A DNA stretch of 34,573 nucleotides, taken from positions 7,860 through 42,432 of the forward strand of contig CAYMOA010000001.1 of assembly GCA_964391935.1 (NCBI GenBank). Reading direction: 5' to 3'. A program made the position numbers and the translations under genes. Positions 7,972 to 33,903 of this stretch are shown here, piece after piece. This stretch comes from an uncultured Candidatus Saccharibacteria bacterium. Lineage in GTDB: Bacteria; Patescibacteriota; Minisyncoccia; Phycocordibacterales; UBA5272. Below the pieces are notes generated by a model. That model was not told the origin of the DNA. It worked only from the letters and a program-made list of their open reading frames with translations, and did not search any database. How positions within the stretch are numbered: the first letter of the stretch is position 1; each line of letters opens with the position of its first letter.

Positions 7972-7992
7972 CCCCTGCCAGGGGGTCAGGGT
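7972..7992 (+). repeat. hairpin-plus-G-tail element, copy A (short)
   Basis: cccctgccagggg plus tail gtcagggt. It is intergenic, directly after the stop (7996) of the upstream minus-strand gene. Confidence 0.45.
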
Positions 7993-7995
7993 AAA

Positions 7996-8676
7996 CTACT
8001 GAACAATAAAATATTGTAAATCTTTGGCTCTGTCTAATTCTTCTATGTTACCTTTCCATTCCCTATAAACAATATCCTCTTCTTTAATTTCTTGTGTATT
8101 TGTATATTTTATTTTATCTCCCAATTCTTCTAGATCACTCACATAAAATTTTTGGGTTTCATTATCTTTGTAAAAAACTTTAATTTTCTGATTTTCTAAA
8201 ATCAAAGAATAAATATTTAGGTGAGAATTGCTTTTATATGTGTCCACACTGTTTTCTTTTATATTAAATTTATAAATCACATCGTAAAAATCTGAGACAC
8301 TTCCCTCTTTAAAGCGAGACTCTAAAAAGTATAGGTGTTCAGGTGTGGTCAAAGTCAACATCTGGGCGCAATGCTCTGGGTCCCAAAAAACATTTTCGGA
8401 AACTTTTTCAAATTTGTTTTTTTCAGAAAAATTTATTTCTTCTAGTTTTTGATTAGTTGCAATATACCAAAATCTTCCAATCTCTTTTTCTTCTTTGTCT
8501 TTTTTTTCTTCTTTAAATCTATACAAATATGCTTTCCCATCTTTTGACAAAACCTCACCTTTTTCTTTTGTAAAACTTTGTCTAGTATCACCACTCATCA
8601 AGTCAGTCTTAAAATAAAAACTCAATCCTATTAAAATGAAAACACAAAATATTACAAACATTCTTTTATTGTTCAT
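7996..8676 (-). CDS. hypothetical membrane-anchored protein
   Basis: The preferred start is the ATG at 8676 (MNNKRMFVIFCVFILIGLSFYF), because TGTTATAAT (-10 at 8689-8684) lies 7 nt upstream and the track start at 8721 sits inside a terminator stem. No known domain. Confidence 0.5.
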   Translation of the reverse strand: MNNKRMFVIFCVFILIGLSFYFKTDLMSGDTRQSFTKEKGEVLSKDGKAYLYRFKEEKKDKEEKEIGRFWYIATNQKLEEINFSEKNKFEKVSENVFWDPEHCAQMLTLTTPEHLYFLESRFKEGSVSDFYDVIYKFNIKENSVDTYKSNSHLNIYSLILENQKIKVFYKDNETQKFYVSDLEELGDKIKYTNTQEIKEEDIVYREWKGNIEELDRAKDLQYFIVQ

Positions 8677-8695
8677 TCCGGTAATTATAACACTC

Positions 8696-8864
8696 AAACA
8701 AAGAAATAGACCGAGATGCAACGTGCATCTCGGTCCTGAGATTGCAGGTGTCCAGCCTTAACTCTGCTGGACAAGACCTCCTGAGAGGAGGCGAAGTGGT
8801 AGCCCTTGCTCACTCCACTTTAGGTTGACGGTCGAGTCCTGTGTCGGACACCCGTATGGCCTTG
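8696..8864 (-). ncRNA. GC-rich structured RNA candidate (unknown class), sRNA or cis-regulatory leader
   Basis: Minus-strand promoter TTGCTT (8898-8893), 16-nt spacer, TAGAAT (8876-8871). P1 is GGUGUCC/GGACACC (8852-8846 with 8753-8747). Inner helices are GGAC/GUCC, AAGUGG/CCACUU and CCUCC/GGAGG. The 12-bp terminator hairpin (8735-8709) is followed by UAUUUCUUUGUUU. My hand count gives 61 G+C in the 106-nt core, against much lower GC in the flanks. Confidence 0.5.
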
Positions 8865-8907
8865 TAGAATATTCTATCTTAAATATTTAAAAAAGCAAGA
8901 CATCGGC

Positions 8908-8936
8908 TTGCATAATATATTAGTATCTGCTAATAT
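8908..8936 (+). promoter_or_regulatory. second copy of the arsR-type promoter/operator, driving the glutaredoxin-like gene
   Basis: cttgcat + aatatattagtatctgctaatatatt aligns without gaps to 5535-5567, with 5 mismatches in the 26 nt after cttgcat. Elements are TTGCAT 8908-8913, imperfect palindrome ATATTAGTATCTGCTAATAT 8917-8936 and TAATAT 8931-8936. The ATG at 8945 is 8 nt downstream. Confidence 0.55.
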
Positions 8937-8944
8937 ATTATTAT

Positions 8945-9190
8945 ATGACAAATAACAATAAAAAAGTAATAATTTATTCGACACCTACTTGCCCGTATTG
9001 TGTTTATGCTAAACAATATTTTAAGGACAAAAAAGTCCCTTTTGAAGATGTTGATTTATTTATACACAGAGACAGAATAGAAGAAGCAAGATCAAAAAGT
9101 GGACAAAATGGTGTGCCAGTGATAGACATCAATGGTCAGATAGTTCTTGGTTTTCAGCCTGAAGTTTTTGAAAAACTTCTGAATCAATAA
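8945..9190 (+). CDS. glutaredoxin/NrdH-like thiol-disulfide oxidoreductase
   Basis: 81 aa. VIIYSTPTCPYCVYAKQYF...GVPVIDINGQIVLGF is the glutaredoxin CPYC fold signature. Confidence 0.8.
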   Translation: MTNNNKKVIIYSTPTCPYCVYAKQYFKDKKVPFEDVDLFIHRDRIEEARSKSGQNGVPVIDINGQIVLGFQPEVFEKLLNQ

Positions 9191-9676
9191 TTACTCAAAC
9201 TCGATTGGTATTTCCAAAGCATCGTCATTTTCTGGGAGACCAGATGGGTTATCTTTTTTGAGAATTATCGCACCTTTTTTAGAATAAACATTTGACTCTA
9301 GTTCATAGGAAATATTAGCTTCGAATGGAACGAACTCGTTTGTCATCCAGTCGCCTTTGGCTTGGGCCACACCAGTGCCAATTATTTTCCCATCCCAGTC
9401 AACAATAAAAATCGGGAATGATGCTTCGAAAAACCAGCTACCTCGGGCACTACCTGTAACTTTTACCGGGCTTTTTATTTTCTGATTTGGTTTCGGACTA
9501 TCTAAAATAATTTTATCACCTTTATCTTCTATGATATTTTTGATATTCTCTTGATTTATAGGATTATTATCTTTTTCTTTTGCAGGATTGATCCCTATAG
9601 AAAAAATCACACTCAAAATAGCAAGAACAAAAAATACTAGTGCAACTATAATAATTTTTTTATTTATATTTTTCAT
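9191..9676 (-). CDS. Gmad2 immunoglobulin-like domain protein, membrane anchored
   Basis: An N-terminal TM helix is followed by SPVKVTGSARGSWFFEASFPIFIVDWDGKIIG...GDWMTNEFVPFEANI, matching the Gmad2 pattern. Confidence 0.65.
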   Translation of the reverse strand: MKNINKKIIIVALVFFVLAILSVIFSIGINPAKEKDNNPINQENIKNIIEDKGDKIILDSPKPNQKIKSPVKVTGSARGSWFFEASFPIFIVDWDGKIIGTGVAQAKGDWMTNEFVPFEANISYELESNVYSKKGAIILKKDNPSGLPENDDALEIPIEFE

Positions 9677-10077
9677 TTATTTTCTTCTTCCTCTTCCTTT
9701 TCTTTTTTATACTCTTTTAAATGTTTCCAAAAAGTTGACACTGTGTCTTTTTCTTTAACCGCGGTTTTTAAGAAAAAGTCGCGCACTGTAGAGTAGAGAA
9801 CGTCAGTAGCGTCAGAAATAAATTTTAAAAATAAAACTATAAAATGTAGTAGCCAGTGGAAAATAGCCAACATAGACTTGGTAAAGTTTCCTTTTGTCGA
9901 GTCATAAAAAGCAAAAACTTTCTCTTTTGCTTCGTCGATATTATTATTTACATCTGCATCCAAAAAAGCACTGGTAACTATTTTTTCAATCTTTTTTCTA
10001 TTAATAAAATATCTAATAGAAAGATAAAAAGCCGCAACCAAGAATGGAATTAGAAATAAATAAAAACTATTTAACAT
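9673..10077 (-). CDS. hypothetical membrane protein
   Basis: 134-aa ORF with a 4-nt overlap onto the downstream gene. It has two hydrophobic helices and an acidic C-terminus. Confidence 0.45.
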   Translation of the reverse strand: MLNSFYLFLIPFLVAAFYLSIRYFINRKKIEKIVTSAFLDADVNNNIDEAKEKVFAFYDSTKGNFTKSMLAIFHWLLHFIVLFLKFISDATDVLYSTVRDFFLKTAVKEKDTVSTFWKHLKEYKKEKEEEEENK

Positions 10078-10080
10078 ATT

Positions 10081-10665
10081 TTATGAGTAGCGAACGAATT
10101 TTGCGATAGATGTGTTTTCACCAAATTTTTGGATAGCACCAGAAAGTAGGTCGGCAATAGTTTTAGAGTCGTCTTTCAAAAACTTTTGGTTCATGAGTAC
10201 TGAGCCGGCTAAAAACTCCGCCCACTTACCTTCTGCAATCTTTGCTTGGATATCTGCTGGCTTTCCTGTTTTTGCAGCTTCTTCCATGAAGGCTTCTAAG
10301 TATTTGGCTTTTACAGATTCATCGATATCAGATTCTTTTACGAACTCTGGGTTCATACCTGCGATGTGAACTGCAATATCAGAGGCAAGAGCGATGAACT
10401 CTGGGTTTGCTGCTACGAAGTCAGTCTCGCAAACCAGTTGCACCATAGCGCCCACTTTCCCACCTTGGTGGATATAAGCTTGAGAACACACAGCTCCAAA
10501 TGCTCGGTCACCTTTCTTTGACGCATCAGCAGACGCTTTCTTTCTCAAAGCGATTTTTGCTTTTTCCATGTCACCGTTACTTTCTTCTAGTGCTTTTTTA
10601 CATTGCATTATAGAAACTCCAGTCTCATCTCTTAATTTTTTTACTTCATCCATTGTTACTGCCAT
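10081..10665 (-). CDS. tsf: translation elongation factor Ts (short form)
   Basis: The UBA-like N-terminus VKKLRDETGVSIMQCKKALEESNGDMEKAKIALRKK and the core CETDFVA motif are present. It lies downstream of rpsB, as in most bacteria. Confidence 0.9.
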   Translation of the reverse strand: MAVTMDEVKKLRDETGVSIMQCKKALEESNGDMEKAKIALRKKASADASKKGDRAFGAVCSQAYIHQGGKVGAMVQLVCETDFVAANPEFIALASDIAVHIAGMNPEFVKESDIDESVKAKYLEAFMEEAAKTGKPADIQAKIAEGKWAEFLAGSVLMNQKFLKDDSKTIADLLSGAIQKFGENTSIAKFVRYS

Positions 10666-10710
10666 AAAATTATATTTTTGTTTTATCTGTTAATCTAGTC
10701 GCACTTTACT

Positions 10711-10736
10711 CCTCCTTGTAAAGGAGGCTGGGAGGA
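10711..10736 (+). repeat. hairpin-plus-G-tail element, copy B (divergent)
   Basis: cctcctt-gta-aaggagg followed by the tail ctgggagga. It sits in the rpsB-tsf spacer, immediately after the rpsB stop. Confidence 0.45.
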
Positions 10737-10742
10737 TTTGTC

Positions 10743-11423
10743 CTATTCTGCTGATTCTATCTTTTCGCCGATGTAGTCTAACACAGTTTGGATAGACAGA
10801 GAAGATGAATCATTAATTACTATCGGATAGTTTACTTCTTTTATATTACAGTCAGTATTACAAAGAGCAACTACAGGGATACGCATATACTTTGCCTCAG
10901 CGAGAGCGATGGCTTCGTGTTTAGAGTCAACAAGTAGAATTGCTTGTGGGAGTCCTGCAACTTGGGCCATACCTCCAAAGTTTTTTGTCATACGCGCGAT
11001 ATCACGGTCGATCAAAACATTTTCTTTTTTTGTATAAACAGCAAACTCACCTGCTTCTTTTTTGGTTAAAAGTTCTGCTAATTTTTCAACTCTTTTTTTA
11101 ATTTCACCAAAGTTTGTTAGAGTCCCACCGATGAATCTTTCTCCTGCATATGGTAGAGACAACTTCATACCAGCACTTGTAACTTGGGCGCGAGCTTCTG
11201 GTTTTGTACCAATGATTAAAAATTGTTTTTTATCTGCAACTATTTTTTGTAAGAATTCTACAGCCTTCTCAACTTGAGCAGCTGTTTTTTCTAAATCAAT
11301 AATATCTTTACCTCCTTTTGTAGCGTAAAGAGAGTTCTTTACTGATGGGTGACGGCGAGTTTTAGAGTAGCCAAAATGCGCACCTGTTTCTGTTAATTTT
11401 TTAACTAAGTCTTCTTTTGTCAT
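10743..11423 (-). CDS. rpsB: 30S ribosomal protein S2
   Basis: LTETGAHFGYSKTRRHPS...ILLVDSKHEAIALAEAKYMRIPVVALCNTDC is the canonical S2 sequence pattern. Confidence 0.92.
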   Translation of the reverse strand: MTKEDLVKKLTETGAHFGYSKTRRHPSVKNSLYATKGGKDIIDLEKTAAQVEKAVEFLQKIVADKKQFLIIGTKPEARAQVTSAGMKLSLPYAGERFIGGTLTNFGEIKKRVEKLAELLTKKEAGEFAVYTKKENVLIDRDIARMTKNFGGMAQVAGLPQAILLVDSKHEAIALAEAKYMRIPVVALCNTDCNIKEVNYPIVINDSSSLSIQTVLDYIGEKIESAE

Positions 11424-11449
11424 ATATTTTATTTTCTATTTTAATTTTA

Positions 11450-11749
11450 TTAATTATTATCCCAAGTATCAGAAGGCTCTGTAATTTTTGTTGAACTGGT
11501 TAAAAATAAACTGTCAGGATAATTATCATTTGTGAATCTGGATGTATCTATATTTTCTTGGTATCCACCTTCTTTTGCTGCCTCCCGTTCAATCTTTGCA
11601 GCGATAATCATTTCTTGCTCTCTAAGGTATTGTTCATCTTCTGGTAATAGTCCATTGTATCCTTGAGCGCACCTAGCCAAACGACGTATTTGAGCTTTGA
11701 AATTTATTTCGTCTTCATCACCATCATAATCACCATATTTTCTAGCCAT
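11450..11749 (-). CDS. hypothetical acidic protein
   Basis: 99-aa ORF behind a roughly 140-nt leader. No recognisable motif. Confidence 0.45.
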   Translation of the reverse strand: MARKYGDYDGDEDEINFKAQIRRLARCAQGYNGLLPEDEQYLREQEMIIAAKIEREAAKEGGYQENIDTSRFTNDNYPDSLFLTSSTKITEPSDTWDNN

Positions 11750-11897
11750 AAAAATACTTGTTATTTTTTTTTAATATTCAAAAAGTTTTTACTACAACAC
11801 CTGAATATTTCCTACAAAAGTTTTACTCTTGTCTGTCACGAAAATTTCGGCTCGGGTGAGCGTCCCCGATGCTGTAATTGCTTTTGAACTGGTCAGT

Positions 11898-11926
11898 ATT
11901 CTAACACAGAAGTAATTTTTTTTCAA
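11898..11926 (-). promoter_or_regulatory. sigma70-type promoter for the 99-aa gene
   Basis: On the minus strand: TTGAAA (11926-11921), 17-nt spacer, TGT-TAGAAT (-10 at 11903-11898). It abuts hairpin element copy C. Confidence 0.45.
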
Positions 11927-11932
11927 GAACAG

Positions 11933-11965
11933 AAAACACCCCTACCCCTCTTTCGAAAAGAGGGG
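11933..11965 (-). repeat. hairpin-plus-G-tail element, copy C
   Basis: aaaacacccctacccctctttcgaaaagagggg. Its reverse complement, cccctcttttcgaaagaggggtaggggtgtttt, is nearly identical to copy D. C and D therefore form inverted terminal repeats. Confidence 0.7.
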
Positions 11966-12211
11966 TTTTCGAGTTCTAACATATTTTTCTAGTTCTAATT
12001 TAACTTGTAAAACATTGCTCTCAACAGTTTCATTTGTAAATCTTAATGTTTGGATACCATATTTGATAAAAAATAAGTTATCTCTTTCACATCTTTTTCT
12101 TTTTGTTTATTGTGTATTTCTCCATCTATTTCAATTATCAATTTTAATTTGCTGCAGTAAACGTTTGGTTGTTCCTTAAATCTCTCGCTCTTGCTACCAA
12201 ATTTGAGTCAT
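11942..12211 (-). pseudogene. decayed DUF559 / Vsr-like endonuclease-domain gene
   Basis: Minus-strand translation in three different frames gives MTQIW*, FKEQPNVYCSKLKLIIEIDGEIHNKQKEKDVKEITYFLS and GIQTLRFTNETVESNVLQVKLELEKYVRTRKPLFSKEG*. These match DUF559 blocks (LW..LR, FRRQ, DFYC..LKL.IE.DG..H, G..VLRF.N.EV). An in-frame stop, frameshifts and a deletion of the IG.YI.DF block are present. Confidence 0.6.
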
Positions 12212-12239
12212 ATCTAATAAAAATAGTTTCTTGAGATGT

Positions 12240-12274
12240 CCCCCTCTTTTTGAAAGAGGGGTTAGGGGTGTTTT
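12240..12274 (+). repeat. hairpin-plus-G-tail element, copy D
   Basis: ccccctctttttgaaagaggggttaggggtgtttt. A partial tail duplicate (ggtgttttca) follows at 12289-12300. Confidence 0.7.
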
Positions 12275-12372
12275 CAGTGCCGGGAGATTTGGTGTTTTCA
12301 ATATCTGTCATAATCTAATGCTTTTTTCTGTCTTTTGTGTTATTATATCAAACATAAAAATTTAAATAATAA

Positions 12373-12924
12373 ATGCATCCAAAAAATCATAGAACTATAA
12401 TGAACGAAAATATCCGCGCACACGAACTTCGTGTCCTCGGAGAAAACAATGAAAACCTAGGCGTGATGGACAGAAATGCTGCCCTGAAAATAGCCAAAGA
12501 AAAAGGAGTGGACCTCATTTTAACAGCAGAAAACGCAGTGCCACCAGTGGCAAAGATTATCGACTACGGTAAATTCGCCTATTTAGAAAATAAAAAAGAT
12601 AATCAAAAAAGAAATAATGACAATACTACGGAGACCAAAGTATTGCGTTTAACTGTGGGTATCGGTGAGGGAGATCTAACAAACAAAGCTAAACAAGCGA
12701 GTGAGTGGTTACATGAAGGTCACCGAGTAAAAATAGAATTGAAATTAAAAGGCCGCGCTAATGCTATCGAACATGATTTCTTAAAAGAAAGATTGCAGAG
12801 AATTTTGATATTGCTTACTGAGAATTATAAAACTGCAGAGCCGATCAAAAAAATCCCCAATGGTATGACAATGGTTATCGAAAAAGCTAAAGGCAAAATG
12901 GGCGAAGCCGCAGAGAATTTGTAA
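12373..12924 (+). CDS. infC: translation initiation factor IF-3
   Basis: INENIRAHELRVLGENNENLGVM...AKEKGVDLILTAENAVPPVAKIIDYGKFAY is the IF-3 N-domain/linker pattern, and the C-domain is present. The exact start is uncertain: ATG at 12373 or a downstream codon. Confidence 0.9.
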   Translation: MHPKNHRTIMNENIRAHELRVLGENNENLGVMDRNAALKIAKEKGVDLILTAENAVPPVAKIIDYGKFAYLENKKDNQKRNNDNTTETKVLRLTVGIGEGDLTNKAKQASEWLHEGHRVKIELKLKGRANAIEHDFLKERLQRILILLTENYKTAEPIKKIPNGMTMVIEKAKGKMGEAAENL

Positions 12925-12956
12925 TTTGTTTTTAGGAGAGTTATAATACTTGCCCT

Positions 12957-13895
12957 ATGATTTCAAAAACTGAAAACAAAATTATTGATTTTTCTTTATT
13001 ATCACTTACTAATCTTTCAAATATTATCCCTACTAGAATCCTTAAAAAACATCTAAACGCAGACGGTAAGGTATATTTCGAACTAGTTTCCTGCGTATTT
13101 AAACCCGACCAGTGGACAAAAGCATTCTTACGGGGTCTTTACCAGTTTGGTGAGCAAGGAGGGTTTACAGACAAAACAGTTGTCGAGCTAGGGAGCGGTT
13201 GTGCTATAAACTTAATTTTAGTGAACAATATTTATAACCCTAAATATATTTACGGCTCAGATATTCATCCAGATGTTTATGAAAATGCATTAAAAAATGT
13301 TTCTTTAGTTTTACCAGAAGAAAAAAGAAATAATATAGAAATAATTTCTGGTGGACATAACCTAGACTCTTGGATGAAGGATGATTTTAAGGTTGATGTC
13401 ATTTTCGGTTGTCTCCCTCAAGTAATTGCCCCATCTCATATTGCTAACAATAACTTTACCGGTGAGAAAAACGAGGCTTCTTCTCACTATTACATCCCAG
13501 AAGAGTACCCATTAGCAAGAACATCTACCCACACTTTAGGACTAGCATTAAATGAACATGCTTTAAGAAAATTAAAAAGCAGATTAAATCCGTGTGGAAA
13601 AATAGTTTTGAACTTGGGTGGTAGGACAGGAAAAGAGAATTTATTAGAAATGTTCACTGCTAGTGGTTATACACCAGAAATATTACATGAGGAATTTATT
13701 GAGCAACACAGTGGTACAAGTATAGAAACTTTTGTAGAGATTGAAAAAAGATCTTCTGCCGATCATACTTTTGAATTCTTCAATGAGTTTGGTCAACAGA
13801 TATCTGCAGCACAGGCTGACATCGATAGAAAAGGTGGTAAAAAAATATACCATAAAATATATGTGATCGCTGGTACAGTTGCCGACAATGTTTAG
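12957..13895 (+). CDS. class I SAM-dependent methyltransferase, MMT/MmtN-like (methionine S-methyltransferase family candidate)
   Basis: SAM motif I is VVELGSGCAINLIL, followed by SDIHPD. FGCLPQV, LNLGGRTGK and VEIEKRSSADHTFEFF parallel the plant MMT N-terminal domain as I remember it (ELGCGNG, GCIPQI, NMGGRPG, VEIEKNSPHRFEFF). TATAAT at 12942-12947 lies 9 nt before the ATG. Confidence 0.7.
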   Translation: MISKTENKIIDFSLLSLTNLSNIIPTRILKKHLNADGKVYFELVSCVFKPDQWTKAFLRGLYQFGEQGGFTDKTVVELGSGCAINLILVNNIYNPKYIYGSDIHPDVYENALKNVSLVLPEEKRNNIEIISGGHNLDSWMKDDFKVDVIFGCLPQVIAPSHIANNNFTGEKNEASSHYYIPEEYPLARTSTHTLGLALNEHALRKLKSRLNPCGKIVLNLGGRTGKENLLEMFTASGYTPEILHEEFIEQHSGTSIETFVEIEKRSSADHTFEFFNEFGQQISAAQADIDRKGGKKIYHKIYVIAGTVADNV

Positions 13896-13942
13896 TTGCA
13901 AATTTGTCAATACTCTGTTATAATTGCACAATCATTTTCTTT

Positions 13943-14164
13943 ATGAAAACAAAAAAATCATTATTAAAAAGACTGAAAATCACCAAGAACGGCAAAATCC
14001 TTGGTCGTGCCAAAGGTATCGGTCACTTCAACGCTCGTAAAAGACGTGTTGACCAACTTGCCCAAAGAAAACCTGTTCCTTTTTCTATGACTAACAAAGA
14101 AAAGAGACGTTTCCTACCAGGTCTTGTAAAGATTGCCAAAGCAAAAGCTTATATAGCTAAATAA
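13943..14164 (+). CDS. rpmI: 50S ribosomal protein L35
   Basis: MKTKKSLLKRLKITKNGKILGRAKGIGHFNARKR matches the L35 pattern. The track start at 13904 adds an implausible hydrophobic extension. Confidence 0.85.
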   Translation: MKTKKSLLKRLKITKNGKILGRAKGIGHFNARKRRVDQLAQRKPVPFSMTNKEKRRFLPGLVKIAKAKAYIAK

Positions 14165-14173
14165 TATAATTTT

Positions 14174-14515
14174 ATGACAAGAGTTAAAAGAGGAAAAATT
14201 TCCCTAAAAAGACGAAATAATGTTCTAAAAGATGCTAAAGGTTTTAGACTACAACGTTCTAAAAAAGAGCGCTCTGCAAAAGTAGCCCTTCGTAAAGCCG
14301 GAGTTCATGCTTTCTCTCACAGAAAAGACAAGAAGAATGACATGAGAAAACTTTGGAATGTAAAGATCAATGCATCATTACGAGAAGCGGGTACAACATA
14401 TAGTAAATTCATCAACTTGATGAAAACTAAAAATGTAGTGCTTGATAGAAAAGTTCTTGCGGAAATCGCTCAGAAACATCCTAAAGTTTTTGCAAACCTA
14501 GTAAAAGCAATTTAG
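14174..14515 (+). CDS. rplT: 50S ribosomal protein L20
   Basis: MTRVKRGKISLKRRNNVLKDAKGF...LWNVKINASLRE...LDRKVLAEIA is canonical L20. Confidence 0.92.
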   Translation: MTRVKRGKISLKRRNNVLKDAKGFRLQRSKKERSAKVALRKAGVHAFSHRKDKKNDMRKLWNVKINASLREAGTTYSKFINLMKTKNVVLDRKVLAEIAQKHPKVFANLVKAI

Positions 14516-14521
14516 TAAAAC

Positions 14522-14552
14522 AAAAAACTCTAGAATATTTCTAGAGTTTTTT
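14522..14552 (+). terminator. rho-independent terminator of the infC-rplT operon
   Basis: An A-run precedes the stem ctctagaa (14528-14535), loop tat and stem ttctagag (14539-14546). A TTTTTT run follows. Confidence 0.8.
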
Positions 14553-14720: not shown

Positions 14721-14835
14721 ACAGTAGGGTGAGAAAGCAGGAGCGAAATTCTGTTGTGAACGAAGTGTCTCAGAACGGGTGAAGCTGGTCGCGGAAAATT
14801 TTCTAGAAGAAAATTTATCTGTGACCTATCCCTGT
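14721..14835 (+). repeat. structured repeat, copy 2 (40-nt hairpin at 14787-14826)
   Basis: It has the same architecture as 2455-2560. The outer pairing is acag..ggg / ccctgt, the 5' block is gagaaagcaggagc, and the hairpin ggtcgcggaaaattttctagaagaaaatttatctgtgacc follows. It lies between tRNA-Lys and the TATAAT (14887-14892) of the next gene. Confidence 0.6.
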
Positions 14836-16045: not shown

Positions 16046-16124
16046 CAAACGCCTTCGGGCTTTCAGTAGAGCAATCTACTGGGTAAAATAATTACAGCAA
16101 TGATTTAATTGCTGTTTTTATTTT
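16046..16124 (+). ncRNA. candidate ~80-nt small RNA convergent with and overlapping the 3' end of the PemK/MazF-like gene
   Basis: The predicted transcript contains the gcc-ttcg-ggc tetraloop hairpin, the cagtag-agcaat-ctactg hairpin and a terminator (acagcaat 16094-16101 with attgctgt 16108-16115) followed by TTTTATTTT. The last 33 nt are antisense to 16092-16124 of the toxin-like CDS. Confidence 0.35.
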
Positions 16125-16484
16125 GTAAAAATCTTCCTTACTTACAATATCAAATTTTTCTTGCAACCGTTTAGTATCATATAAACGCAGTTGGGAAATT
16201 ACGATTGATTGCACACCACTTTGCGTATTTATCTTTACATAATAAGGATTATTTTCTTTTATCTTGGTAGAAAGTGCACAACCCCAAAACAAGTTATTAT
16301 TGAACTTTTTGACTACAACTATCGGCCTTTCAAATAGTTCACCTTTGCCGTCTTCTTCATCGCCAATGTTTAGACCAAGTGAAAGCCACCAAATTTCACG
16401 CTCTTTCATATACACAGGATTTACCAACCTATCCTTTCTATCGTATTCTTTTTTGATTTCATTCCAAGTATCAAAATTCTTCAT
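16092..16484 (-). CDS. PemK/MazF-like toxin-fold protein
   Basis: 130 aa. REIWWLSLGLNIGDEEDGKGELFERPIVVVKKF...GCALSTK matches the PemK/MazF SH3-like barrel pattern (GEIWW...G.N.G.E..G....RPVLVL..F). No small antitoxin ORF lies upstream. Confidence 0.65.
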   Translation of the reverse strand: MKNFDTWNEIKKEYDRKDRLVNPVYMKEREIWWLSLGLNIGDEEDGKGELFERPIVVVKKFNNNLFWGCALSTKIKENNPYYVKINTQSGVQSIVISQLRLYDTKRLQEKFDIVSKEDFYKIKTAIKSLL

Positions 16485-17683: not shown

Positions 17684-17720
17684 CCCCCTCTTTTTTAAAG
17701 AGGGAGCTGGGGGTGTTTTT
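17684..17720 (+). repeat. hairpin-plus-G-tail element, copy E
   Basis: ccccctcttttttaaagagggagctgggggtgttttt, located 17 nt after the secG stop. It probably doubles as a terminator. Confidence 0.65.
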
Positions 17721-23950: not shown

Positions 23951-23974
23951 ACCCTAATCCCCGCAACGCGGGGA
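23951..23974 (-). repeat. hairpin-plus-G-tail element, copy F
   Basis: accctaa + tccccgc-aac-gcgggga; the reverse complement is tccccgcgttgcgggga + ttagggt. It is intergenic, after the stop of 24039..24419. Confidence 0.5.
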
Positions 23975-24038: not shown

Positions 24039-24419
24039 CTATTTACAATTATTTGCGAGTGTATACCCTGCTTTTTGAGCAAGCAATTCTGTATCAAAAT
24101 ATCTTTTATTACTTTCTTTTATATTCCCTGCACCACTACACCAAACAAAATAATATTTTTTCCCACCTTTACTAGCTACAATTGTACTGGTTCTAACTTT
24201 TCCAAATAAAGAATTTTTTTCTTTTTCATAATTCGCATCCTCTGCTTCCTGTGACTCAAAAGTAAATGTTGGCGACATTTCCATAAACTTGGTCAATCTA
24301 CCCAGAAAAAAGAATAATATTAATAAAGAAATAGCGAGAATCCCCCAGAAAAACTTTATTAGCCAACTTACCAACTCAACCTTGAAAAACTCTTTTATTT
24401 GTGCTATAATCTCGCTCAT
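24039..24419 (-). CDS. hypothetical membrane-anchored protein
   Basis: 126 aa with one TM helix. The C-terminal KKYYFVWCSGAGNIKESNKRYFDTELLAQKAGYTLANNC resembles the short Cys-containing Y(H)..C....I...N...F.....A...GY..C domain seen on secreted proteins. This assignment is weak. Confidence 0.45.
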   Translation of the reverse strand: MSEIIAQIKEFFKVELVSWLIKFFWGILAISLLILFFFLGRLTKFMEMSPTFTFESQEAEDANYEKEKNSLFGKVRTSTIVASKGGKKYYFVWCSGAGNIKESNKRYFDTELLAQKAGYTLANNCK

Positions 24420-24747: not shown

Positions 24748-24772
24748 ACCCCCTAAGGGGGTTATATTTTTT
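24748..24772 (+). terminator. rho-independent terminator of rpmA
   Basis: The hairpin accccc-taa-gggggt is followed by tatatttttt. Confidence 0.65.
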
Positions 24773-24815
24773 ATTTAAATTGACTTTCTTTTAAATTGTG
24801 TTTTACTTTATTCTA

Positions 24816-25100
24816 ATGGAAAAACCAAAAGTAACTTTTAATAAAAATTGGTCCCTCGGTGATAGAAAGTTAATTATAGATCAAATAAGACAAGGCTCAA
24901 ACTCTGCTCAAATCGAACGTATTGCTAAACAGAAGGGATTAGATAATATCAAGAGTAGGGCCGTAAATAACTTCATGAGAGACAATGAAGATTCACTTTC
25001 AAAAAGACTGAAAATGAAATCTGGGGGAGAGCGAGTGAGAGAATCAAGTATAGGTAATCAAAGTAAAATTACAAGAAAGGTCACTATAAAGAAGAGCTGA
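24816..25100 (+). CDS. hypothetical basic protein
   Basis: The 94-aa ORF is taken from the ATG at 24816; the track start is the GTG at 24798. No recognisable motif. Confidence 0.4.
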   Translation: MEKPKVTFNKNWSLGDRKLIIDQIRQGSNSAQIERIAKQKGLDNIKSRAVNNFMRDNEDSLSKRLKMKSGGERVRESSIGNQSKITRKVTIKKS

Positions 25101-28170: not shown

Positions 28171-28199
28171 AATAGTTATAAGTTTAACATGATATAATT

Positions 28200-30446
28200 A
28201 TGGTACAAATGTTAGTCAAAGACCTGGCTTTTATTACAGAAAGAGAGAAAGCAATACTTATTAAAAATGGGGTTAAAACCTTTGAACAACTTTTATATTA
28301 TTTCCCTTTCCGTTTCGAAGAAGCACCACGTGCCAAACAAATAATTGATGTGCAGGCGGGCGAAGCCGTGTCTGTGTCAGGGATCATCGAGGACATCGAA
28401 GCCAAAAGTGGCTACCACACTGGTGCCAAGTTCACCAAAGCCATCATCAAGGACAATACAGAAAGTATCGAGGCTATCTGGTGGAATATGCCTTACATTG
28501 CAAACACGCTAAAAATCGGACAGAAAATAATCCTCACTGGGACTGTATCAGAAAAAGGTGGTAACTTATTTTTATCAAACCCAAAAATCGAAAGAGTAAA
28601 AAGTTTACCTATCAACGCTGACTCTACACTTTTCCAAAAAGATGAGATGAAACCGATGACTCCGGTTTACTCCAACTTTCGTGGAGTGAAAAATTTTGAT
28701 TTTAAAAAAATAATTGAAAAAAGTTTAAAAAGTACTGAGTTTAAAAATTTGAAAAACCTCATCCCAGAAAAAATATCTGAGAAACTGCATTTGGGAAACA
28801 GACAGAATGCTATTCTTCGTAAACATTTACCAAAGAATCAAGATGATATTGTAGTAACCAATAAATATTTTGCTTTTGAAGAAATTTTTGTGATGCAGAT
28901 CTATCGCGAACAAGAGAAAAGTTTGCGCGCAGATGCCCATGCCTATCAAATAAATGTTGATAAAAACTTTCGTGAGAGCTTAGAAGAAGTCCTCCCCTTT
29001 AAACTCACAGTTGGTCAAGAAAAAGTTCTAGAAACTATTTTAAAAGATATGGAGGTAAATAAACCAATGTCACGTTTAGTCGAGGGGGATGTGGGTAGTG
29101 GGAAAACTATTCTTGCCCTTGCGGCAACACTCGCTACAGTTCTAACAGTGGCCAAGAACTCAAAACCATTACAAGTTGCTTATATCGCTCCTACAGAAAT
29201 CTTGGCCAACCAACATTTTGAGTTTTTTACTAAAACCCTTTCTATCTTTTCTCACTTACAAATTGCCCTGCTCACTTCGTCTGGTGCAAAAATCTTCCCT
29301 TCAAAAATAGACCGAGAAAAATGGACAGCTGCACCCAAGTCCCGTGTTAAAAAACTTCTCGACGAAGGCAAACTAAATATAGTAATCGGAACCCACTCTC
29401 TATTTAATAAAAATATTTTATTTGAACATTTGGGATTAGTAATTATTGATGAGCAACACCGGTTTGGTGTTAAGCAGCGTTTAGCCATGATAGAAAAACA
29501 TAAAAGTGCAGAGAATAAGTTTAAAAAAACTAGACCCAAAAATGATCTGCGTGAGTTTACAGACGAGTATGATGATCTGAAACTTCTTCCCATTCCTCAC
29601 CTCCTTTCTATGTCAGCAACACCTATTCCTCGCACACTTGCTCTCACTATCTATGGCGATCTTGATCTATCTATTCTCGACGAGTTGCCGCCAGGGAGAA
29701 AAAGAGCTGAAACGAAAATTGTCACCAAGTTTTCTCGAGAGAAAATGTACAAAGTGTTGATCGAAAAACTAAAACTTGGTAAGCAAGCATATATTATCGC
29801 CCCCCGGATCAAAGATGATACTGAGGACGTAGGAGACGAAAACTCAAATAAAAAAAGCTCAGTCGAGTTCGAAGAGAAAAGAATCAAAGAATATCTAAAA
29901 AAAGAAAAGTTGGATTTTAAGATTGGTACTCTCCACGGTAAACAAAGTAAAAATGATAAAGAAAAAGTTATCGAGAAGTTTTATAAAAAAGAAATTGATA
30001 TTTTGATTTCTACTACTGTGGTTGAGGTTGGTATCTCTGTACCGAACGCAACTTGCATCATTATTGAAAATGCTGACACTTTTGGTCTGGCTCAACTACA
30101 CCAACTCCGTGGTCGTGTAGAGCGCAGCACCGACCACTCAGTTTGTTTTCTCGCAACCGAAAGTGAGAACGAAAAAAGTTTAAAAAGACTCGAAGCCTTG
30201 GTAAAAAGTAATAATGGTTTTGAGTTGGCAGAAGTCGACTTGTTAGAGCGAGGTGCAGGAAGTCTCATTGGTAACCGTCAGTCTGGTTTAACCGACATTG
30301 GTATGGAGGCAATTAAAAATAGGAAATTAGTAGAGATTGCCAAAGAAGAAGCAAGAAATGTTTTAGACCATGACGCGAAACTGATCAAGCCTGAACACCA
30401 AACTCTAAAAAATAAAATCGACGAGTTCACTTTCCACGAGGAGTAA
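28200..30446 (+). CDS. recG: ATP-dependent DNA helicase RecG
   Basis: It has an OB wedge region and the motifs GDVGSGKT, IIDEQHRFGV, SATPIPRT and QLHQLRGRVER. The ATG at 28200 is only 1 nt after TATAAT (28193-28198), so the ATG at 28209 is the more likely start. Confidence 0.9.
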   Translation: MVQMLVKDLAFITEREKAILIKNGVKTFEQLLYYFPFRFEEAPRAKQIIDVQAGEAVSVSGIIEDIEAKSGYHTGAKFTKAIIKDNTESIEAIWWNMPYIANTLKIGQKIILTGTVSEKGGNLFLSNPKIERVKSLPINADSTLFQKDEMKPMTPVYSNFRGVKNFDFKKIIEKSLKSTEFKNLKNLIPEKISEKLHLGNRQNAILRKHLPKNQDDIVVTNKYFAFEEIFVMQIYREQEKSLRADAHAYQINVDKNFRESLEEVLPFKLTVGQEKVLETILKDMEVNKPMSRLVEGDVGSGKTILALAATLATVLTVAKNSKPLQVAYIAPTEILANQHFEFFTKTLSIFSHLQIALLTSSGAKIFPSKIDREKWTAAPKSRVKKLLDEGKLNIVIGTHSLFNKNILFEHLGLVIIDEQHRFGVKQRLAMIEKHKSAENKFKKTRPKNDLREFTDEYDDLKLLPIPHLLSMSATPIPRTLALTIYGDLDLSILDELPPGRKRAETKIVTKFSREKMYKVLIEKLKLGKQAYIIAPRIKDDTEDVGDENSNKKSSVEFEEKRIKEYLKKEKLDFKIGTLHGKQSKNDKEKVIEKFYKKEIDILISTTVVEVGISVPNATCIIIENADTFGLAQLHQLRGRVERSTDHSVCFLATESENEKSLKRLEALVKSNNGFELAEVDLLERGAGSLIGNRQSGLTDIGMEAIKNRKLVEIAKEEARNVLDHDAKLIKPEHQTLKNKIDEFTFHEE

Positions 30447-30448
30447 AT

Positions 30449-31288
30449 TTATCTTGCACTTGCTTTCAACACATTCTCGAATAGGCAGGCGACTACGAGA
30501 GGGCCCATGCAACCGGGAACTGGTGTGTAGTATGATGCAAGATCGAAACACTCTGGGTCAAAGTCACCACAAGCTACCTCTTTTCCTGACTCATCTTTTA
30601 CAAAAGAGCAGCCATAGTCTATCAATACACTTCCCTCTTTTATGAGTTCTTTTTTTATGAAAAACGGTTTGCCAACAGCAGAGATCACTACGTCGCAATC
30701 TTTTATTTTTTCTTCTTCCCCTTTTTTTATTATCTCGATTTCCCAATTATTTTTCTGTCTATTTTTTTCTAAATAATGTTTTATTGGTAGCCCTACCACC
30801 TGACCAAGTCCAACTATCCCGAATTTCGCACTACTTCCTCCCCTATTTATAGGGGAGGTTAGGTGGGGTTGAACAACTTCTAGAATTTTTTCCAAAGCCA
30901 AAACAATTGGGGCTTCAAAATTTCCATCATTTAAATTATCTACATCTTTTTCTTTTACTATTAAAGTCAGGATTTCTTCTGTGTTCTCTTTTAATTTTTC
31001 TGGAAGAGGCAACTGTACAATTACAGCATCGTTTTCTTTTTGTAAATTTAATAATTCTTCTTTTATTTTTTCTAAACTCGTTTGTTCAGACAAAATTAAA
31101 ATATTTACAACAAAGCCATAATTTTCCCCAAATTTCTTTTTTACTTTTATAAAAGATAGAGATGCAGGATCATTACCCACACATAAAATACCTAGAGAAG
31201 GTTTTTTGTTTTCTCCAAATTTTTCTAAAATTTCTTTCTTTAAAAATTCTCCTATTTCTCTATTTATCTTTTTTCCATCAATCAACAT
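30449..31288 (-). CDS. folD: bifunctional methylenetetrahydrofolate dehydrogenase/cyclohydrolase FolD, carrying an in-frame repeat insertion
   Basis: MLIDGKKI..., ILCVGNDPASLSFIKVKKK, VIVQLPLP, KDVDNL and TPVPGCMGPLVVACL are the FolD pattern. The segment QPHLTSPINRGGSS is encoded by hairpin element copy H. Confidence 0.88.
   Translation of the reverse strand: MLIDGKKINREIGEFLKKEILEKFGENKKPSLGILCVGNDPASLSFIKVKKKFGENYGFVVNILILSEQTSLEKIKEELLNLQKENDAVIVQLPLPEKLKENTEEILTLIVKEKDVDNLNDGNFEAPIVLALEKILEVVQPHLTSPINRGGSSAKFGIVGLGQVVGLPIKHYLEKNRQKNNWEIEIIKKGEEEKIKDCDVVISAVGKPFFIKKELIKEGSVLIDYGCSFVKDESGKEVACGDFDPECFDLASYYTPVPGCMGPLVVACLFENVLKASAR
30837..30868 (+). repeat. hairpin-plus-G-tail element, copy H (inside the folD CDS)
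   Basis: cctcccctat-tt-ataggggagg (10-bp arms) plus the tail ttaggtgggg. Read on the coding (minus) strand it gives PHLTSPINRGG. Confidence 0.7.
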
Positions 31289-31296
31289 GTGTGCAA

Positions 31297-31542
31297 TTAT
31301 AGCACATCGTCTTTTACTCGATAACTAGAAATATATTTGTACATACCAAACTCCATTTCTAAACCAGAGATCAGTTTGTCACACACTTCAAATTCTTGTT
31401 CTGCGAGATATCTATGAATCGAATACTCTTTTTTTGTAATATGATGTTTATGTAAAATTAAAAGAGTGCGGAAGTGCAAAAGTCTATCAGAAATTTTTCT
31501 TACTTTATTTTTGGTTACTAATTTATTTTGCATAAGGTTCAC
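31297..31542 (-). CDS. hypothetical protein
   Basis: 81-aa ORF that overlaps the Mur-ligase 3' end by 20 nt. The folD TGCTATAAT box lies across its last codon and stop codon. No motif; coding status is uncertain. Confidence 0.35.
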   Translation of the reverse strand: MNLMQNKLVTKNKVRKISDRLLHFRTLLILHKHHITKKEYSIHRYLAEQEFEVCDKLISGLEMEFGMYKYISSYRVKDDVL

Positions 31543-32881
31543 TTATCTTAAGATACTTATTTAAAATCGCTTTACGTACCTCTTCCCTGTCATCCCACGG
31601 TTCTACATGATCTTTAAAGATGATAGTTTGCTCTGCTCCCTTACAAGTAAATAACAATACGTCACCTTCTTTTGCCATTGACACTGCCATCTCAATGGCT
31701 TTTCTTCTATCAATTGTTTCAAAAATATTTTCATTTTTCTTCATTCCAAAAGACAAAGCCTTTTCCATTAGAAAATCATTTATAATTTGTGGATCCGTAT
31801 CAAATGGGTCAGACAATGTAATTATTCCAACATTTGCTTTTTCTGACAAAATTTTTACTACTCCAGTTCTTGGCTCTCTACCCCCTCCGTCACCACCAAA
31901 AACTACTATCAGACTACTCCCAGGTTTTTTAATTTTTAACAAGGTATTAACCGCATAGCCAAAAGAAACCGCTTCGTATGCATAGTCAACTACTGCAGTA
32001 AAATTTTGTCCTACATCTGGTACAAATATTTTTTCCATCCTTCCGGGAATATAATTACAGTTTTTAACACCTTGCTGTATTTCCTCTTGTTTAACCTCTA
32101 GATGCTTGGCTAAAATTATTGCTGGTAACGAATTATATACATTTACTTTCCCTAAAACAGGAACATAATATTTTTGCTCATCCATATCAAACGAAACCCC
32201 AGAATCATTTTCAATTACATTGGTAAATTTATAGTCCCCGTTTTTCTCACCATAAGAATATTTTTTATCAGCTGGGAAGTTATAAAAATAATCACCATTT
32301 TCATCATCGGTGTTTACAATAGAAACTTTTTCAACATCTACACCGTTCCATCTTTTTGTAGGTAGTTTAGTCAAATTTTCAAAAAGCAAACCTTTCATCT
32401 TTTTATATTCTTCAAATGAGTTATTGTGTGACTTTAAATGCTCTGGGAAAATATTTGTAAATACTGCTACATCATAGTAAAGTCCAAAATGTCTATTCAT
32501 TTTCATCCCCTCACTGGTGACTTCTACTAAAACTATGTCGCATCGTGCGTCCAACATTTCTCTTAAGAGTTTTTGCAAAAGAAATCGCCCAGGCATAGTC
32601 ATATGATACCAATTCATTTTCTCAACACTTCCTATCTTTATATTCGCTGTAGATATTAAACCTACCTTGTAACCACCCTCGGTTAAAACATGCCATAAAA
32701 AGTTGAGAGTCGAAGTTTTTCCTTTTGTACCAGTAACAGCAACCACTAACATTTCTTTACTTGGGTTGCCATAATAAACTTGGGCCAGATAAGCAAGCAC
32801 TGTGTGGTAATAAATAAAAAACATCTCCCCAAAAATATTTTGAATAACTTTTCTAATAAATCTTTTTAACTCTCTAAACAT
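31523..32881 (-). CDS. Mur ligase family protein (MurE/MurT-like)
   Basis: The P-loop VAVTGTKGKTST is present, and the central and C-terminal Mur ligase domain layout (VVFGGDGGGR, TCKGAEQ) fits. TGATATACT lies 7 nt upstream of the ATG. Confidence 0.8.
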   Translation of the reverse strand: MFRELKRFIRKVIQNIFGEMFFIYYHTVLAYLAQVYYGNPSKEMLVVAVTGTKGKTSTLNFLWHVLTEGGYKVGLISTANIKIGSVEKMNWYHMTMPGRFLLQKLLREMLDARCDIVLVEVTSEGMKMNRHFGLYYDVAVFTNIFPEHLKSHNNSFEEYKKMKGLLFENLTKLPTKRWNGVDVEKVSIVNTDDENGDYFYNFPADKKYSYGEKNGDYKFTNVIENDSGVSFDMDEQKYYVPVLGKVNVYNSLPAIILAKHLEVKQEEIQQGVKNCNYIPGRMEKIFVPDVGQNFTAVVDYAYEAVSFGYAVNTLLKIKKPGSSLIVVFGGDGGGREPRTGVVKILSEKANVGIITLSDPFDTDPQIINDFLMEKALSFGMKKNENIFETIDRRKAIEMAVSMAKEGDVLLFTCKGAEQTIIFKDHVEPWDDREEVRKAILNKYLKISEPYAK

Positions 32882-32886
32882 GATAT

Positions 32887-33903
32887 TTAGTATATCATTT
32901 TTCTTAAAATGTACAGAAAATATCTTATTCTTTTTATTGGGATATCCACAAAGTCACCGTGGAATTTTGCAAATCCACCAAACCTTTTTTTAAAATTGGT
33001 CACCCCTTGTAAACTTTGTTTTCCATAACCATTTTCAAAAATACCGCCAAAATTATATATTTCACAACCCATTTTTTTAGAATGTTTTGTTGCTTCCCAT
33101 TGCATCAGATGGTTAAACCCAAGTTCTCTTTTTTCAGAAACACTTCCCGCAAAAACTAAGTTGGCAACTTTATCAGCAATTACAATCAAAGCTACAGACA
33201 TATATTTGTCCTCCAACTTTGTAAAAACTAAAAACTTTTTTATATCCTCTGAAGTTTGATTGTTTGCAAATATTTGTTTGTAATAATTTTCTTCATAAAG
33301 TGAAAAACCATCTCGCTCACTTGTCTCTTTTAAAAGATTCCAAAAATCTGAAAAATGACTTTCTAAATTCTCTTCTATAATTTCTATTTTAATATTTTCA
33401 CGTTCTGCTCGGCGTATAGAATATTTATTATCTTTATGTATTCTATTTAATAAATTTTCTTCTGTATCATTTAAGTTTAACCACCACTCTACTCGTGGTT
33501 GAAAAATCCCCTCTCTCGCAAAACTTTTTTTAGGAGGGTATATTTTTGTTTGAAGTGATGCAGAAAAAATATGGAACGTAGAGGATAAGGCACTATGTTC
33601 ATCTGCCTCGGAGTTACTTATTTTTTCTGCATCATATTTTTCTAATCTAACAAAAACACAATTTTCTTTTTTTGCGAGGTCTTTTAAATAATTTAAAATT
33701 TCTGTTTCTACCCCCCTTAATCCCCCCTTAGTAAGGGGGGAAACTAGAGCAGGCCCATAAGGTACATACAAAACTTTTCCAATTTTAAGATTTATAATTA
33801 AGCTAGCACAAACAGAAGAACCAAACTCTTTGTAAAAAGTTTTTTCTCCGACCGCTTCGTGCCAACTTAGGTATTCTCTTGTCTGGGTAAAAGGAATATT
33901 CAT
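32887..33903 (-). CDS. FemAB-family peptidoglycan peptide-bridge aminoacyltransferase, carrying an in-frame repeat insertion
   Basis: The pattern is FTQTREYLSWHEAVG..., YVPYGP..., FAGSVSEKRELGFNHLMQWEATKHSKKMGCEIYNFGGI. The start is moved to the ATG at 33903, 8 nt after TGATATAAT. The segment SPLTKGGLRGV is encoded by hairpin element copy I. Confidence 0.75.
   Translation of the reverse strand: MNIPFTQTREYLSWHEAVGEKTFYKEFGSSVCASLIINLKIGKVLYVPYGPALVSPLTKGGLRGVETEILNYLKDLAKKENCVFVRLEKYDAEKISNSEADEHSALSSTFHIFSASLQTKIYPPKKSFAREGIFQPRVEWWLNLNDTEENLLNRIHKDNKYSIRRAERENIKIEIIEENLESHFSDFWNLLKETSERDGFSLYEENYYKQIFANNQTSEDIKKFLVFTKLEDKYMSVALIVIADKVANLVFAGSVSEKRELGFNHLMQWEATKHSKKMGCEIYNFGGIFENGYGKQSLQGVTNFKKRFGGFAKFHGDFVDIPIKRIRYFLYILRKMIY
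33710..33740 (-). repeat. hairpin-plus-G-tail element, copy I (inside the FemAB CDS)
   Basis: On the plus strand: accccccttaa + tcccccctta-g-taagggggg. On the coding (minus) strand the order is hairpin then tail, which translates as SPLTKGGLRGV. Confidence 0.7.

Follow-up and report, generated by a model that had tools for sequence, protein, structure and literature searches.

A dispersed family of GC-rich palindromic elements in a CPR bacterium and its physical link to DUF559 nuclease genes across phyla

Palindromic elements and a dead DUF559 cassette in the window

The window, a 34.6-kb stretch from the genome of a Paceibacteria-type CPR bacterium, carries 8-10 copies of a hairpin element of 21-45 nt in which a C-rich arm pairs with a G-rich arm that is usually followed by a G-rich tail. 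Eight copies had been listed in the original prediction and all are present at the coordinates given there, six of them intergenic and two within coding sequence. The list had omitted two tail-less C/G-run hairpins (8777-8791 and 24748-24762), and it had overlooked what proved to be the most informative point, namely that copies C and D, an inverted pair, are the termini of a decayed DUF559 cassette. The features are as follows.

7972-7992, + strand: copy A, hairpin CCCCTgccAGGGG with the weak tail TCAGGGT, 3 nt past the stop of the gene at 7996-8721 (- strand)
10711-10736, + strand: copy B, CCTCCTTgtaAAGGAGG-CT-GGGAGGA, between rpsB and tsf, 6 nt past the rpsB stop
11933-11965, - strand: copy C, reading CCCCTCTTTTCGAAAGAGGGG-TA-GGGGTGTTTT on the - strand, terminus of the dead DUF559 cassette on the 3' side of the pseudogene
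11975-12227, - strand: DUF559 (Vsr-like PD-(D/E)XK endonuclease) pseudogene with two frameshifts and residues 23-54 deleted
12240-12274, + strand: copy D, CCCCCTCTTTTTGAAAGAGGGG-TTA-GGGGTGTTTT, terminus of the dead cassette on the 5' side of the pseudogene
17684-17720, + strand: copy E, a solo copy of the C/D sequence type, 16 nt past the secG stop
23951-23974, - strand: copy F, TCCCCGCGttGCGGGGA-TTA-GGGT with a weak tail, 64 nt downstream of the gene at 24039-24419
24748-24762, no strand assigned: tail-less C/G-run palindrome ACCCCCtaaGGGGGT with a T-run behind it, after rpmA; relatives differ at this site
30837-30868, + strand: copy H, in frame in folD (30449-31288, - strand), encoding PHLTSPINRGG
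33708-33740, - strand: copy I, a 33-nt in-frame insertion in a FemAB-family gene (32887-33909, - strand), encoding SPLTKGGLRGV

The G-rich tail, proposed to be common to all copies, is clear in B, C, D, E, H and I, where 5-8 nt able to pair with the C-arm lie 0-6 nt past the G-arm, but is weak in A and F, which retain GGGT only. The related idea that the C-arm has two alternative partners is borne out by RNAfold for A, B, C, E and I, in which tail pairing rivals or lengthens the inner hairpin. An independent repeat finder placed C, D, E and H in one family (D3) and reported C and E as an inverted repeat. As had been claimed, the elements occur in both orientations, the solo copies A, B, E, F, H and I dividing 3:3 relative to transcription. 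Copies A, B and E do follow a stop codon directly, as proposed, but F lies farther downstream and C is at the DUF559 pseudogene. The convergence of encoded peptides on SP..(K/R)GG is real and uninformative: CCN encodes Pro and GGN encodes Gly, so any C-run/G-run palindrome yields it trivially.

The predicted enrichment was confirmed. When a stem of 5 bp or more and an arm with 4 or more C or G were required, hairpins were counted at 12 loci in the 34.6 kb, against 1.0±0.96 (maximum 4) in 200 dinucleotide shuffles, an enrichment of approximately 12-fold; with stems of at least 7 bp the figures are 9 in the window and 0.3 in the shuffles. A relaxed scan of the window that permitted one mismatch found no further convincing copies. 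Ordinary terminators were rejected as an explanation on the grounds that most copies lack a T-run beside the stem, that they occur in both orientations and that two lie in frame within genes. In agreement with this aspect of the original prediction, a terminator scan called A alone, weakly, and none of B to I, and the canonical terminators of the genome are other hairpins. The palindrome at 24748-24762, of uncertain relation to the family, probably serves as a terminator; in relatives the site holds an AT-rich bidirectional terminator and the neighbouring 100-aa ORF is missing.

The sole DUF559 gene of the window is a dead copy. A tblastn search with the intact protein of a syntenic relative (L001) aligned three colinear segments, each in a frame of its own (12221-12162, 12159-12091 and 12088-11984; summed E 7e-14), and the deletion of residues 23-54 removes the catalytic DHFVVDF block of a family whose alignment shows the invariant core D-H-F-V-V-D-F ... 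E-x-D-G-x-x-H. In L001 an intact DUF559 gene (PF04480) is bracketed in the same way, at another locus. The DUF559 profile matches PDB 3hrl, an endonuclease-like protein (E 1.7e-22), and the Vsr/DUF559 clade groups together with a group I intron homing endonuclease (PMC3424549). Pfam scans of 30 window ORFs detected neither Y1_Tnp nor any other transposase.

Presence and absence among relatives

Insertion polymorphism, expected of a mobile family, was observed at orthologous loci of Paceibacteria-type CPR relatives, among which B, E, F, I and the C-D block all vary. Copy B, whose sequence type is that of the DUF559 flanks of L001, L035 and L036, lies within a segment of ~49 nt that is missing in three relatives (L022, L023 and L028), and copy F lies within a segment of ~88 nt lacking in L001 and L002. 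The C-D cassette is missing in relatives, which have a 159-aa gene there instead, and at the site of copy E relatives carry a different small hairpin, GTGGGGaataCCCCAC. Comparison of filled and empty sites for B, F, I and the Deinococcus cassettes described below revealed no clear target-site duplication or defined target. The junctions at these sites are AT-rich or locally diverged.

The two copies within coding sequence vary among relatives too. Copy I corresponds to an 11-codon gap in L001 and L002, with well-conserved flanks in both protein and DNA alignments, and its sequence resembles the 3' hairpin of the DUF559 genes of L029 and L035, CCCCTTTACTTAAAGGGG. The copy H segment is missing from the closest FolD homologues, P0002 (79% identity) and P0003 (76%), and is present at the same codon in the more distant P0007 (65% identity), with 31 of 32 nt identical; the block conserved at the nucleotide level spans ~30828-30871, and copy H adds ~14 codons to folD. 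In the AlphaFold model of FolD the added segment is coil, modelled with low confidence, that links helix 127-143 to strand 155-159, the pLDDT being 64 at residues 141-150 as against 93.5 overall. In-frame copies are also found in genes of the relatives, and the CPR genes hit are folD, a FemAB-family gene and a PIF1-type helicase gene.

Elements beside DUF559 genes across phyla

The hairpin-plus-tail motif abuts the start and/or stop of DUF559 genes well beyond this genome, and the stop codon often falls within the TAA spacer or the loop. Flanked genes occur at five further Patescibacteria loci (L009, L017, L029, L035 and L036), in one Angelakisella and one Calditrichaceae genome, in Azospirillum, two Deinococcus species, Synechocystis and Neisseria gonorrhoeae, and on several metagenome contigs of 51-69% GC. 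The core GAGGGGTTAGGGGTG is common to copy D and to DUF559 flanks in relatives and distant phyla, and is identical in the L019-L021 contigs (67-69% GC). A strict detector found an element at 21 of 40 DUF559 gene ends, compared with 0.42±0.59 in shuffles and with 8 of 208 other gene ends at the same loci (odds ratio 27.6, Fisher p 1.8e-13), in a locus set of which some members are phylogenetically dependent (L019-L021; L041/L042). Element density is 3.35 per kb near DUF559 genes and 0.127 per kb elsewhere. Our literature search found no earlier description of this pairing.

Solo copies resemble the DUF559 flanks of their own genome: E matches C and D in the window, and the elements at 1893 and 2597 of L035 match the 3' flank there. 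Relatives carry the cassette at differing loci, and the two Deinococcus species both have it in the hpa operon but at different positions there. Gene-less doublets and solo copies are scattered through many genomes; a 351-kb Pannonibacter plasmid has gene-less inverted doublets in at least 40 places, and in tandem doublets of N. gonorrhoeae the sequence neighbouring the left element is shared with the gene-bearing copy. Only beside DUF559 genes or in repeat doublets is the TTA-GGGGTG tail kept across phyla. Its direction relative to the gene is not constant: it points away from the gene in the window, in L001 and in Deinococcus, but towards it in L016 and L019-L021, a variation not foreseen by a model of fixed transposon ends. 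The core 15-mer occurs 145 times in viral-collection contigs, in a single case within 300 nt of a DUF559 ORF, a ratio that fits many solo copies per gene and also independence of the two.

Interpretation, alternatives and related systems

We lean toward a model in which the family consists of REP/RAYT-like selfish palindromic elements partnered by a DUF559 nuclease. Each element (~30-45 nt, GC-rich and palindromic) would be one terminal repeat of a small selfish DUF559 cassette, with C and D as its two ends around the decayed gene; the other six listed copies (A, B, E, F, H and I) would be solo and non-autonomous. Such copies would survive where they do little harm, just past stop codons or, if divisible by three in length, in the surface loops of proteins. 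We infer that the DUF559 protein may recognise and cut hairpin-plus-tail DNA, and that repair of the break by copying another element or cassette could spread or homogenise the elements and the gene. PD-(D/E)XK nucleases hydrolyse DNA and cannot perform strand transfer on their own, so any mobilisation would need host repair. More tentatively, as something short of an even bet, we suggest that DUF559 (COG2852) and palindromes of the form CCCCTC-loop-GAGGGG-TTA-GGGGTG are nuclease and repeat partners throughout the bacteria, forming a second system of the RAYT/REP kind that works by a different mechanism.

The most serious alternative, which we nonetheless judge unlikely, is that the repeats are an independent family spread by other means and that a free-standing, homing-type DUF559 gene merely targets them, entering between two inverted copies that serve as homology arms, in the manner in which IS1397 and ISPpu9 target REP sequences. 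A homing endonuclease is known among Vsr-like enzymes, and the hairpins on either side of the gene are invariably complete, as would follow from its insertion into a doublet's spacer. Gene-less doublets are common and vary in tail orientation themselves, and elements far outnumber the genes. However, the dispersed copies in the window and its relatives are singlets, which offer such a gene no two-sided homology, and the spread of 30-45-nt singlets into coding sequences is left unexplained; the match between flanks and solo copies of one genome is predicted by both models.

It is still less probable, in our estimation, that the elements are host-useful structures (stabilisers of mRNA 3' ends, terminators, insulators or protein-binding sites) selected at gene ends, with DUF559 genes requiring strong insulation. 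Copies A, B and E do lie close behind stop codons, every relative has some hairpin downstream of secG, and C, D and E end in GGGGTGTTTT, which places a T-run behind a tail-closed stem. Yet H and I reside within essential coding sequences, the solo copies divide evenly in orientation relative to transcription, A alone is terminator-like in a genome served by other, canonical terminators, relatives thrive without B, F and I, and the TTA-GGGGTG tail is kept across phyla solely with DUF559 genes or in doublets. The reading that the copies are unrelated terminators, or GC-rich palindromes that arose by chance in an AT-rich genome, gains something from the shortness and weak tails of A and F and from the variable stem sequences, but can be set aside almost entirely, as it is refuted by the hairpin excess over shuffles and the element excess at DUF559 gene ends and runs against the architecture and sequence types shared with other genomes and the insertion polymorphism among relatives.

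The original prediction had likened the family to Rickettsia palindromic elements (RPEs), REP sequences and Correia-type repeats. The behaviour of a dispersed family stood up in each refuting test it named; the likeness is functional only, and the features that define those systems were not found. Like REP sequences and REPINs, the elements are imperfect palindromes, short and GC-rich, whose hairpin is accompanied by a brief conserved motif; they appear to be numerous, lie mostly just past genes and occur as singlets and (in other phyla) inverted doublets, and as in REP/RAYT systems a nuclease gene is bracketed by an inverted pair whose flanks match dispersed copies in the same genome. Unlike them, no window copy has GTAG (GT[AG]G) at the hairpin foot, its place being taken by (T/C)TA and a partial repeat of the G-arm; window elements also lie in frame within genes, and the bracketed gene encodes a DUF559, Vsr-like PD-(D/E)XK hydrolytic nuclease rather than an HUH Y1 (IS200-like) transposase.

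RPEs, which are ~100-150 bp long and Rickettsia-specific, share with the present family a palindromic form, a small AT-rich genome of a host-dependent bacterium, polymorphism between relatives and in-frame insertion at tolerated surface positions, seen here in I (33 nt) and H (a low-pLDDT loop). The elements described here are shorter, unrelated in sequence and from a Paceibacteria-type CPR host, and no nuclease gene is known to be associated with RPEs. As with MITEs (Correia/NEMIS) and the REP-targeting insertion sequences, non-coding derivatives outnumber the coding copy, gene-less doublets resemble internal-deletion derivatives and elements can provide stop codons at gene ends, but we detected no transposase of a known family among the 30 window ORFs and no clear target-site duplication at the sites compared, and the singlets have an internal palindrome only instead of two terminal inverted repeats. 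Genes for Vsr-like homing endonucleases (I-Bth0305I, PDB 3r3p) are likewise small nuclease genes of the same superfamily clade, and DUF559 genes too are present or absent at orthologous sites and vary in locus among relatives; they differ in being bracketed by dispersed palindromes, with no intron or intein and no single conserved target gene. The GC clusters of yeast mitochondrial DNA recall the present elements in being short, palindromic and mobile, in forming GC-rich islands within a very AT-rich genome, and in being polymorphic and occasionally in frame in coding sequence, but they are organellar, unrelated in sequence and without a DUF559 partner.

DUF559 proteins are encoded in very many bacterial genomes and their role is not agreed; the sole functional work we found in the literature characterises one member as a Vsr-type repair nickase (PMC12907096). 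The tight link described here leads to a testable hypothesis, that the flanking element is the substrate of the enzyme. If so, a role would be assigned to a widespread domain of unknown function and a second nuclease superfamily would be added to the REP/RAYT paradigm. Intergenic palindromic repeats in Rhizobiales, Deinococcus, Neisseria, Cyanobacteria and CPR bacteria would be explained, as would in-frame insertions in essential genes of minimal genomes. In practice, such elements lengthen ORFs spuriously, alter stop codons and show up in protein alignments as misleading "insertions". The in-frame insertions in folD, the FemAB-family gene and the PIF1-type helicase gene indicate that even the very reduced genomes of CPR/Patescibacteria carry active or recently active selfish DNA, and that this DNA remodels protein loops.

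Hairpin-plus-tail elements in the window

Judged by its proteins, the 34.6-kb window (34% GC) has its nearest named relatives among the Patescibacteria (Paceibacterota, Parcubacteria, Yonathbacteria and Nomurabacteria). All eight proposed copies of the GC-rich element (A, B, C, D, E, F, H and I), in which a hairpin is followed by a G-rich tail partly repeating the G-arm, are present at the predicted positions. A repeat finder independently grouped C, D, E and H, and hairpins with C/G runs are enriched over a dinucleotide-matched background (12 loci against 1.0±0.96 in 200 shuffles; with stems of 7 bp or more, 9 against 0.3). A relaxed scan of the window added no convincing copies; tail-less hairpins at 24748 and 8777 lie outside the predicted set. 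The tail was originally ascribed to every copy. Six (B, C, D, E, H and I) have a clear one; those of A and F are weak. Folding agrees with the idea that the C-arm has two alternative partners, since it can pair about as well with the tail as with the G-arm. Both orientations occur, as proposed: relative to transcription, the solo copies E, F and I read hairpin then G-tail, and A, B and H read C-tail then hairpin. The convergence of translated copies on similar peptides, however, is a by-product of codons and not a sign of function. Element counts here rest on our own structural scans instead of a covariance model; hairpin centres fall in different registers in a MAFFT alignment of 21 oriented elements, and a single consensus structure could therefore not be written.

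Other features of the window
Whole window: rpsB, tsf, infC, rpmI, rplT, secG, RNase J, BipA, RecG, FolD, Mur ligase and FemAB-family protein genes, with many small hypothetical proteins
16873, 8709, 14518, 23359 and 24748: hairpins that are the evident terminators of the genome
16873-16893: GC-only hairpin GGCCGGCGCgaaGCGCCGGCC with a T-run, in the same place in two relatives (L022 12738-12760, L023 13692-13714); in contrast to the polymorphic element family, an ordinary terminator
8709-8791: three strong hairpins in succession (stems of 12, 8 and 6 bp), unrelated in sequence to the element family, at the 5' end of ORF 7996-8721; the first overlaps the predicted TTG start codon at 8721
2512-2551 and 14787-14826: 40-nt repeat GGTCGCGGAAAATTTTCTGCAAGAAAATTTATCTGTGACC, 95% identical, itself containing an inverted repeat; one copy lies upstream of a TfoX-like gene, the other at the start of ORF 14779; may be a common operator or leader
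5533-5567 and 8905-8939: 35-nt repeat GGCTTGCAT...TATTAG.AT.TGCTAATATATT, 86% identical, in divergent intergenic regions; looks like a common promoter or operator
11750-11915: non-coding block of ~165 nt downstream of rpsB, near-identical in L022 (9160-9330) and L023 (8477-8650), where the surrounding sequence is rearranged; no Rfam match even at E<=1 (11700-11945 searched); may be an unrecognised small RNA
16092-16484: PemK/MazF-type toxin gene (Pfam E 1.7e-11)
24798-25100 and 11450-11749: small ORFs (100 and 99 aa) with no Pfam match, in window-specific segments missing in relatives, adjoining the rpmA/BipA and rpsB junctions

Elements and DUF559 genes across bacteria

Copies C (11933-11965) and D (12240-12274) form an inverted pair, and the 275 bp between them hold, on the minus strand, a gene of the Vsr-like endonuclease family DUF559 that is disrupted by two frameshifts and is missing residues 23-54. 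Relatives carry a 159-aa gene in the place of this cassette. In the related locus L001, an intact 116-aa DUF559 gene (PF04480) bracketed in the same way sits between the sigma-70 and ftsH genes. We gathered further DUF559 loci blind to the presence of elements (5 and 8 from genome and metagenome scans, more from protein look-ups and a plasmid collection), and across these the genes and elements are closely associated.

Association of elements with DUF559 genes
Ends of DUF559 genes that carry an element (strict detector): 21/40, against 0.42±0.59 in shuffles
Ends of other genes of these loci that carry an element: 8/208 (against the 21/40, odds ratio 27.6, p 1.8e-13)
Elements per kb: 3.35 within 160 nt of DUF559 genes, against 0.127 in the remainder of these loci

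A hairpin with tail abuts the DUF559 gene in five Patescibacteria loci besides L001 and the window, in Angelakisella, Calditrichaceae and several metagenome contigs of 51-69% GC, and in Azospirillum, two Deinococcus species, Synechocystis and N. gonorrhoeae; the 15-mer GAGGGGTTAGGGGTG of copy D recurs exactly in contigs of 67-69% GC. The DUF559 stop codon often lies within the element, in its TAA spacer or its loop. In the two Deinococcus species the cassette is found in the same hpa operon but not in the same slot, and in D. proteolyticus the inverted repeat runs ~15 nt past the tails. At a Nomurabacteria locus, direct repeats of the whole doublet (~110-140 nt; L009 3803-3945 and 4362-4470) flank the DUF559 gene, an arrangement suggesting that a doublet was either inserted into or duplicated.

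Elements also occur apart from the gene. In alphaproteobacterial replicons the element recurs between genes in many copies (a 351-kb plasmid has it in at least 40 places), typically as a doublet of two inverted elements some 45-70 nt apart. The alphaproteobacterial G-arm and tail together contain four G-tracts, which prompted a G-quadruplex reading of the family, but the window copies have only two. Beside the N. gonorrhoeae DUF559 gene lie three tandem gene-less doublets (L044 1490-2184, unit 281 bp), which share with the gene-bearing copy the sequence adjoining the left element. Contigs of a viral collection hold 145 occurrences of the 15-mer, 117 of them with a matching C-arm upstream, and only one of the 145 has a DUF559 ORF within 300 nt; solo copies thus greatly outnumber genes. 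Tandem gene-less doublets (unit ~335 bp) were also seen in one such contig, L157.

Insertion polymorphism at orthologous loci

Comparison with syntenic loci of relatives (IF3 97% and FolD 76-79% identical to those of the window) revealed the predicted insertion polymorphism for B, E, F, H and I. Copy I is a clean insertion of 33 nt, or 11 codons, in a FemAB-family gene. Copy B lies within a ~49-nt segment that three relatives are without, copy F lies within a ~88-nt window-specific segment, and copy E stands where relatives have a different small hairpin. Copy H lengthens the inter-domain linker of FolD by ~14 codons; in the AlphaFold model (mean pLDDT 93.5) the insert is a low-confidence coil leading from helix 127-143 to strand 155-159. 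It is missing from the two closest FolD homologues and occupies the same place, with 31/32 nt identical, in a FolD only 65% identical, so that the element is far better conserved than the codons around it. Several genes of relatives, among them folD and one for a PIF1-type helicase, contain in-frame copies of their own.

A second site in FolD is also variable. At 30560-30590 the window has a decayed-looking version (codons for VKDESGKEV), the L001 counterpart (10648-10669) is a perfect 10-bp palindrome, TGTAGACCCCcgGGGGTCTACA, encoding IVDPRGST, and other homologues lack the segment, which suggests an older in-frame palindrome insertion.

Palindromes and a proposed partner nuclease

We favor, by a modest preference, a model in which the elements are selfish palindromes partnered with DUF559. 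Neither copies B, F and I nor the Deinococcus cassettes show a clear target-site duplication, and tail orientation differs from cassette to cassette; for these reasons the mechanism is one that we infer. The main rival, that a homing-type DUF559 gene merely targets pre-existing repeats, is less probable, although the Vsr/DUF559 clade does include a group I intron homing endonuclease (PMC3424549). A function for the host, at the level of RNA or DNA, is improbable and could at most be a secondary role. As host terminators the elements can be dismissed, since a consensus terminator scan calls, among the listed copies, A alone and weakly, and H and I lie within genes.

Rfam contains no family matching the elements: the window yielded two tRNAs and nothing else at the gathering threshold, and ten element-rich loci gave no match. 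The papers that we found to mention DUF559 draw no link to repeats, and our literature searches turned up no account of repeat-flanked DUF559 genes, of the core sequence, or of elements like these from CPR bacteria. The pattern is that of REP/REPIN sequences and their RAYT transposases, in that palindromes are many, nuclease genes bracketed by inverted copies are few, and the gene flanks match solo copies of the same genome. Unlike in REP/RAYT systems, the nuclease here is a predicted hydrolytic PD-(D/E)XK enzyme.
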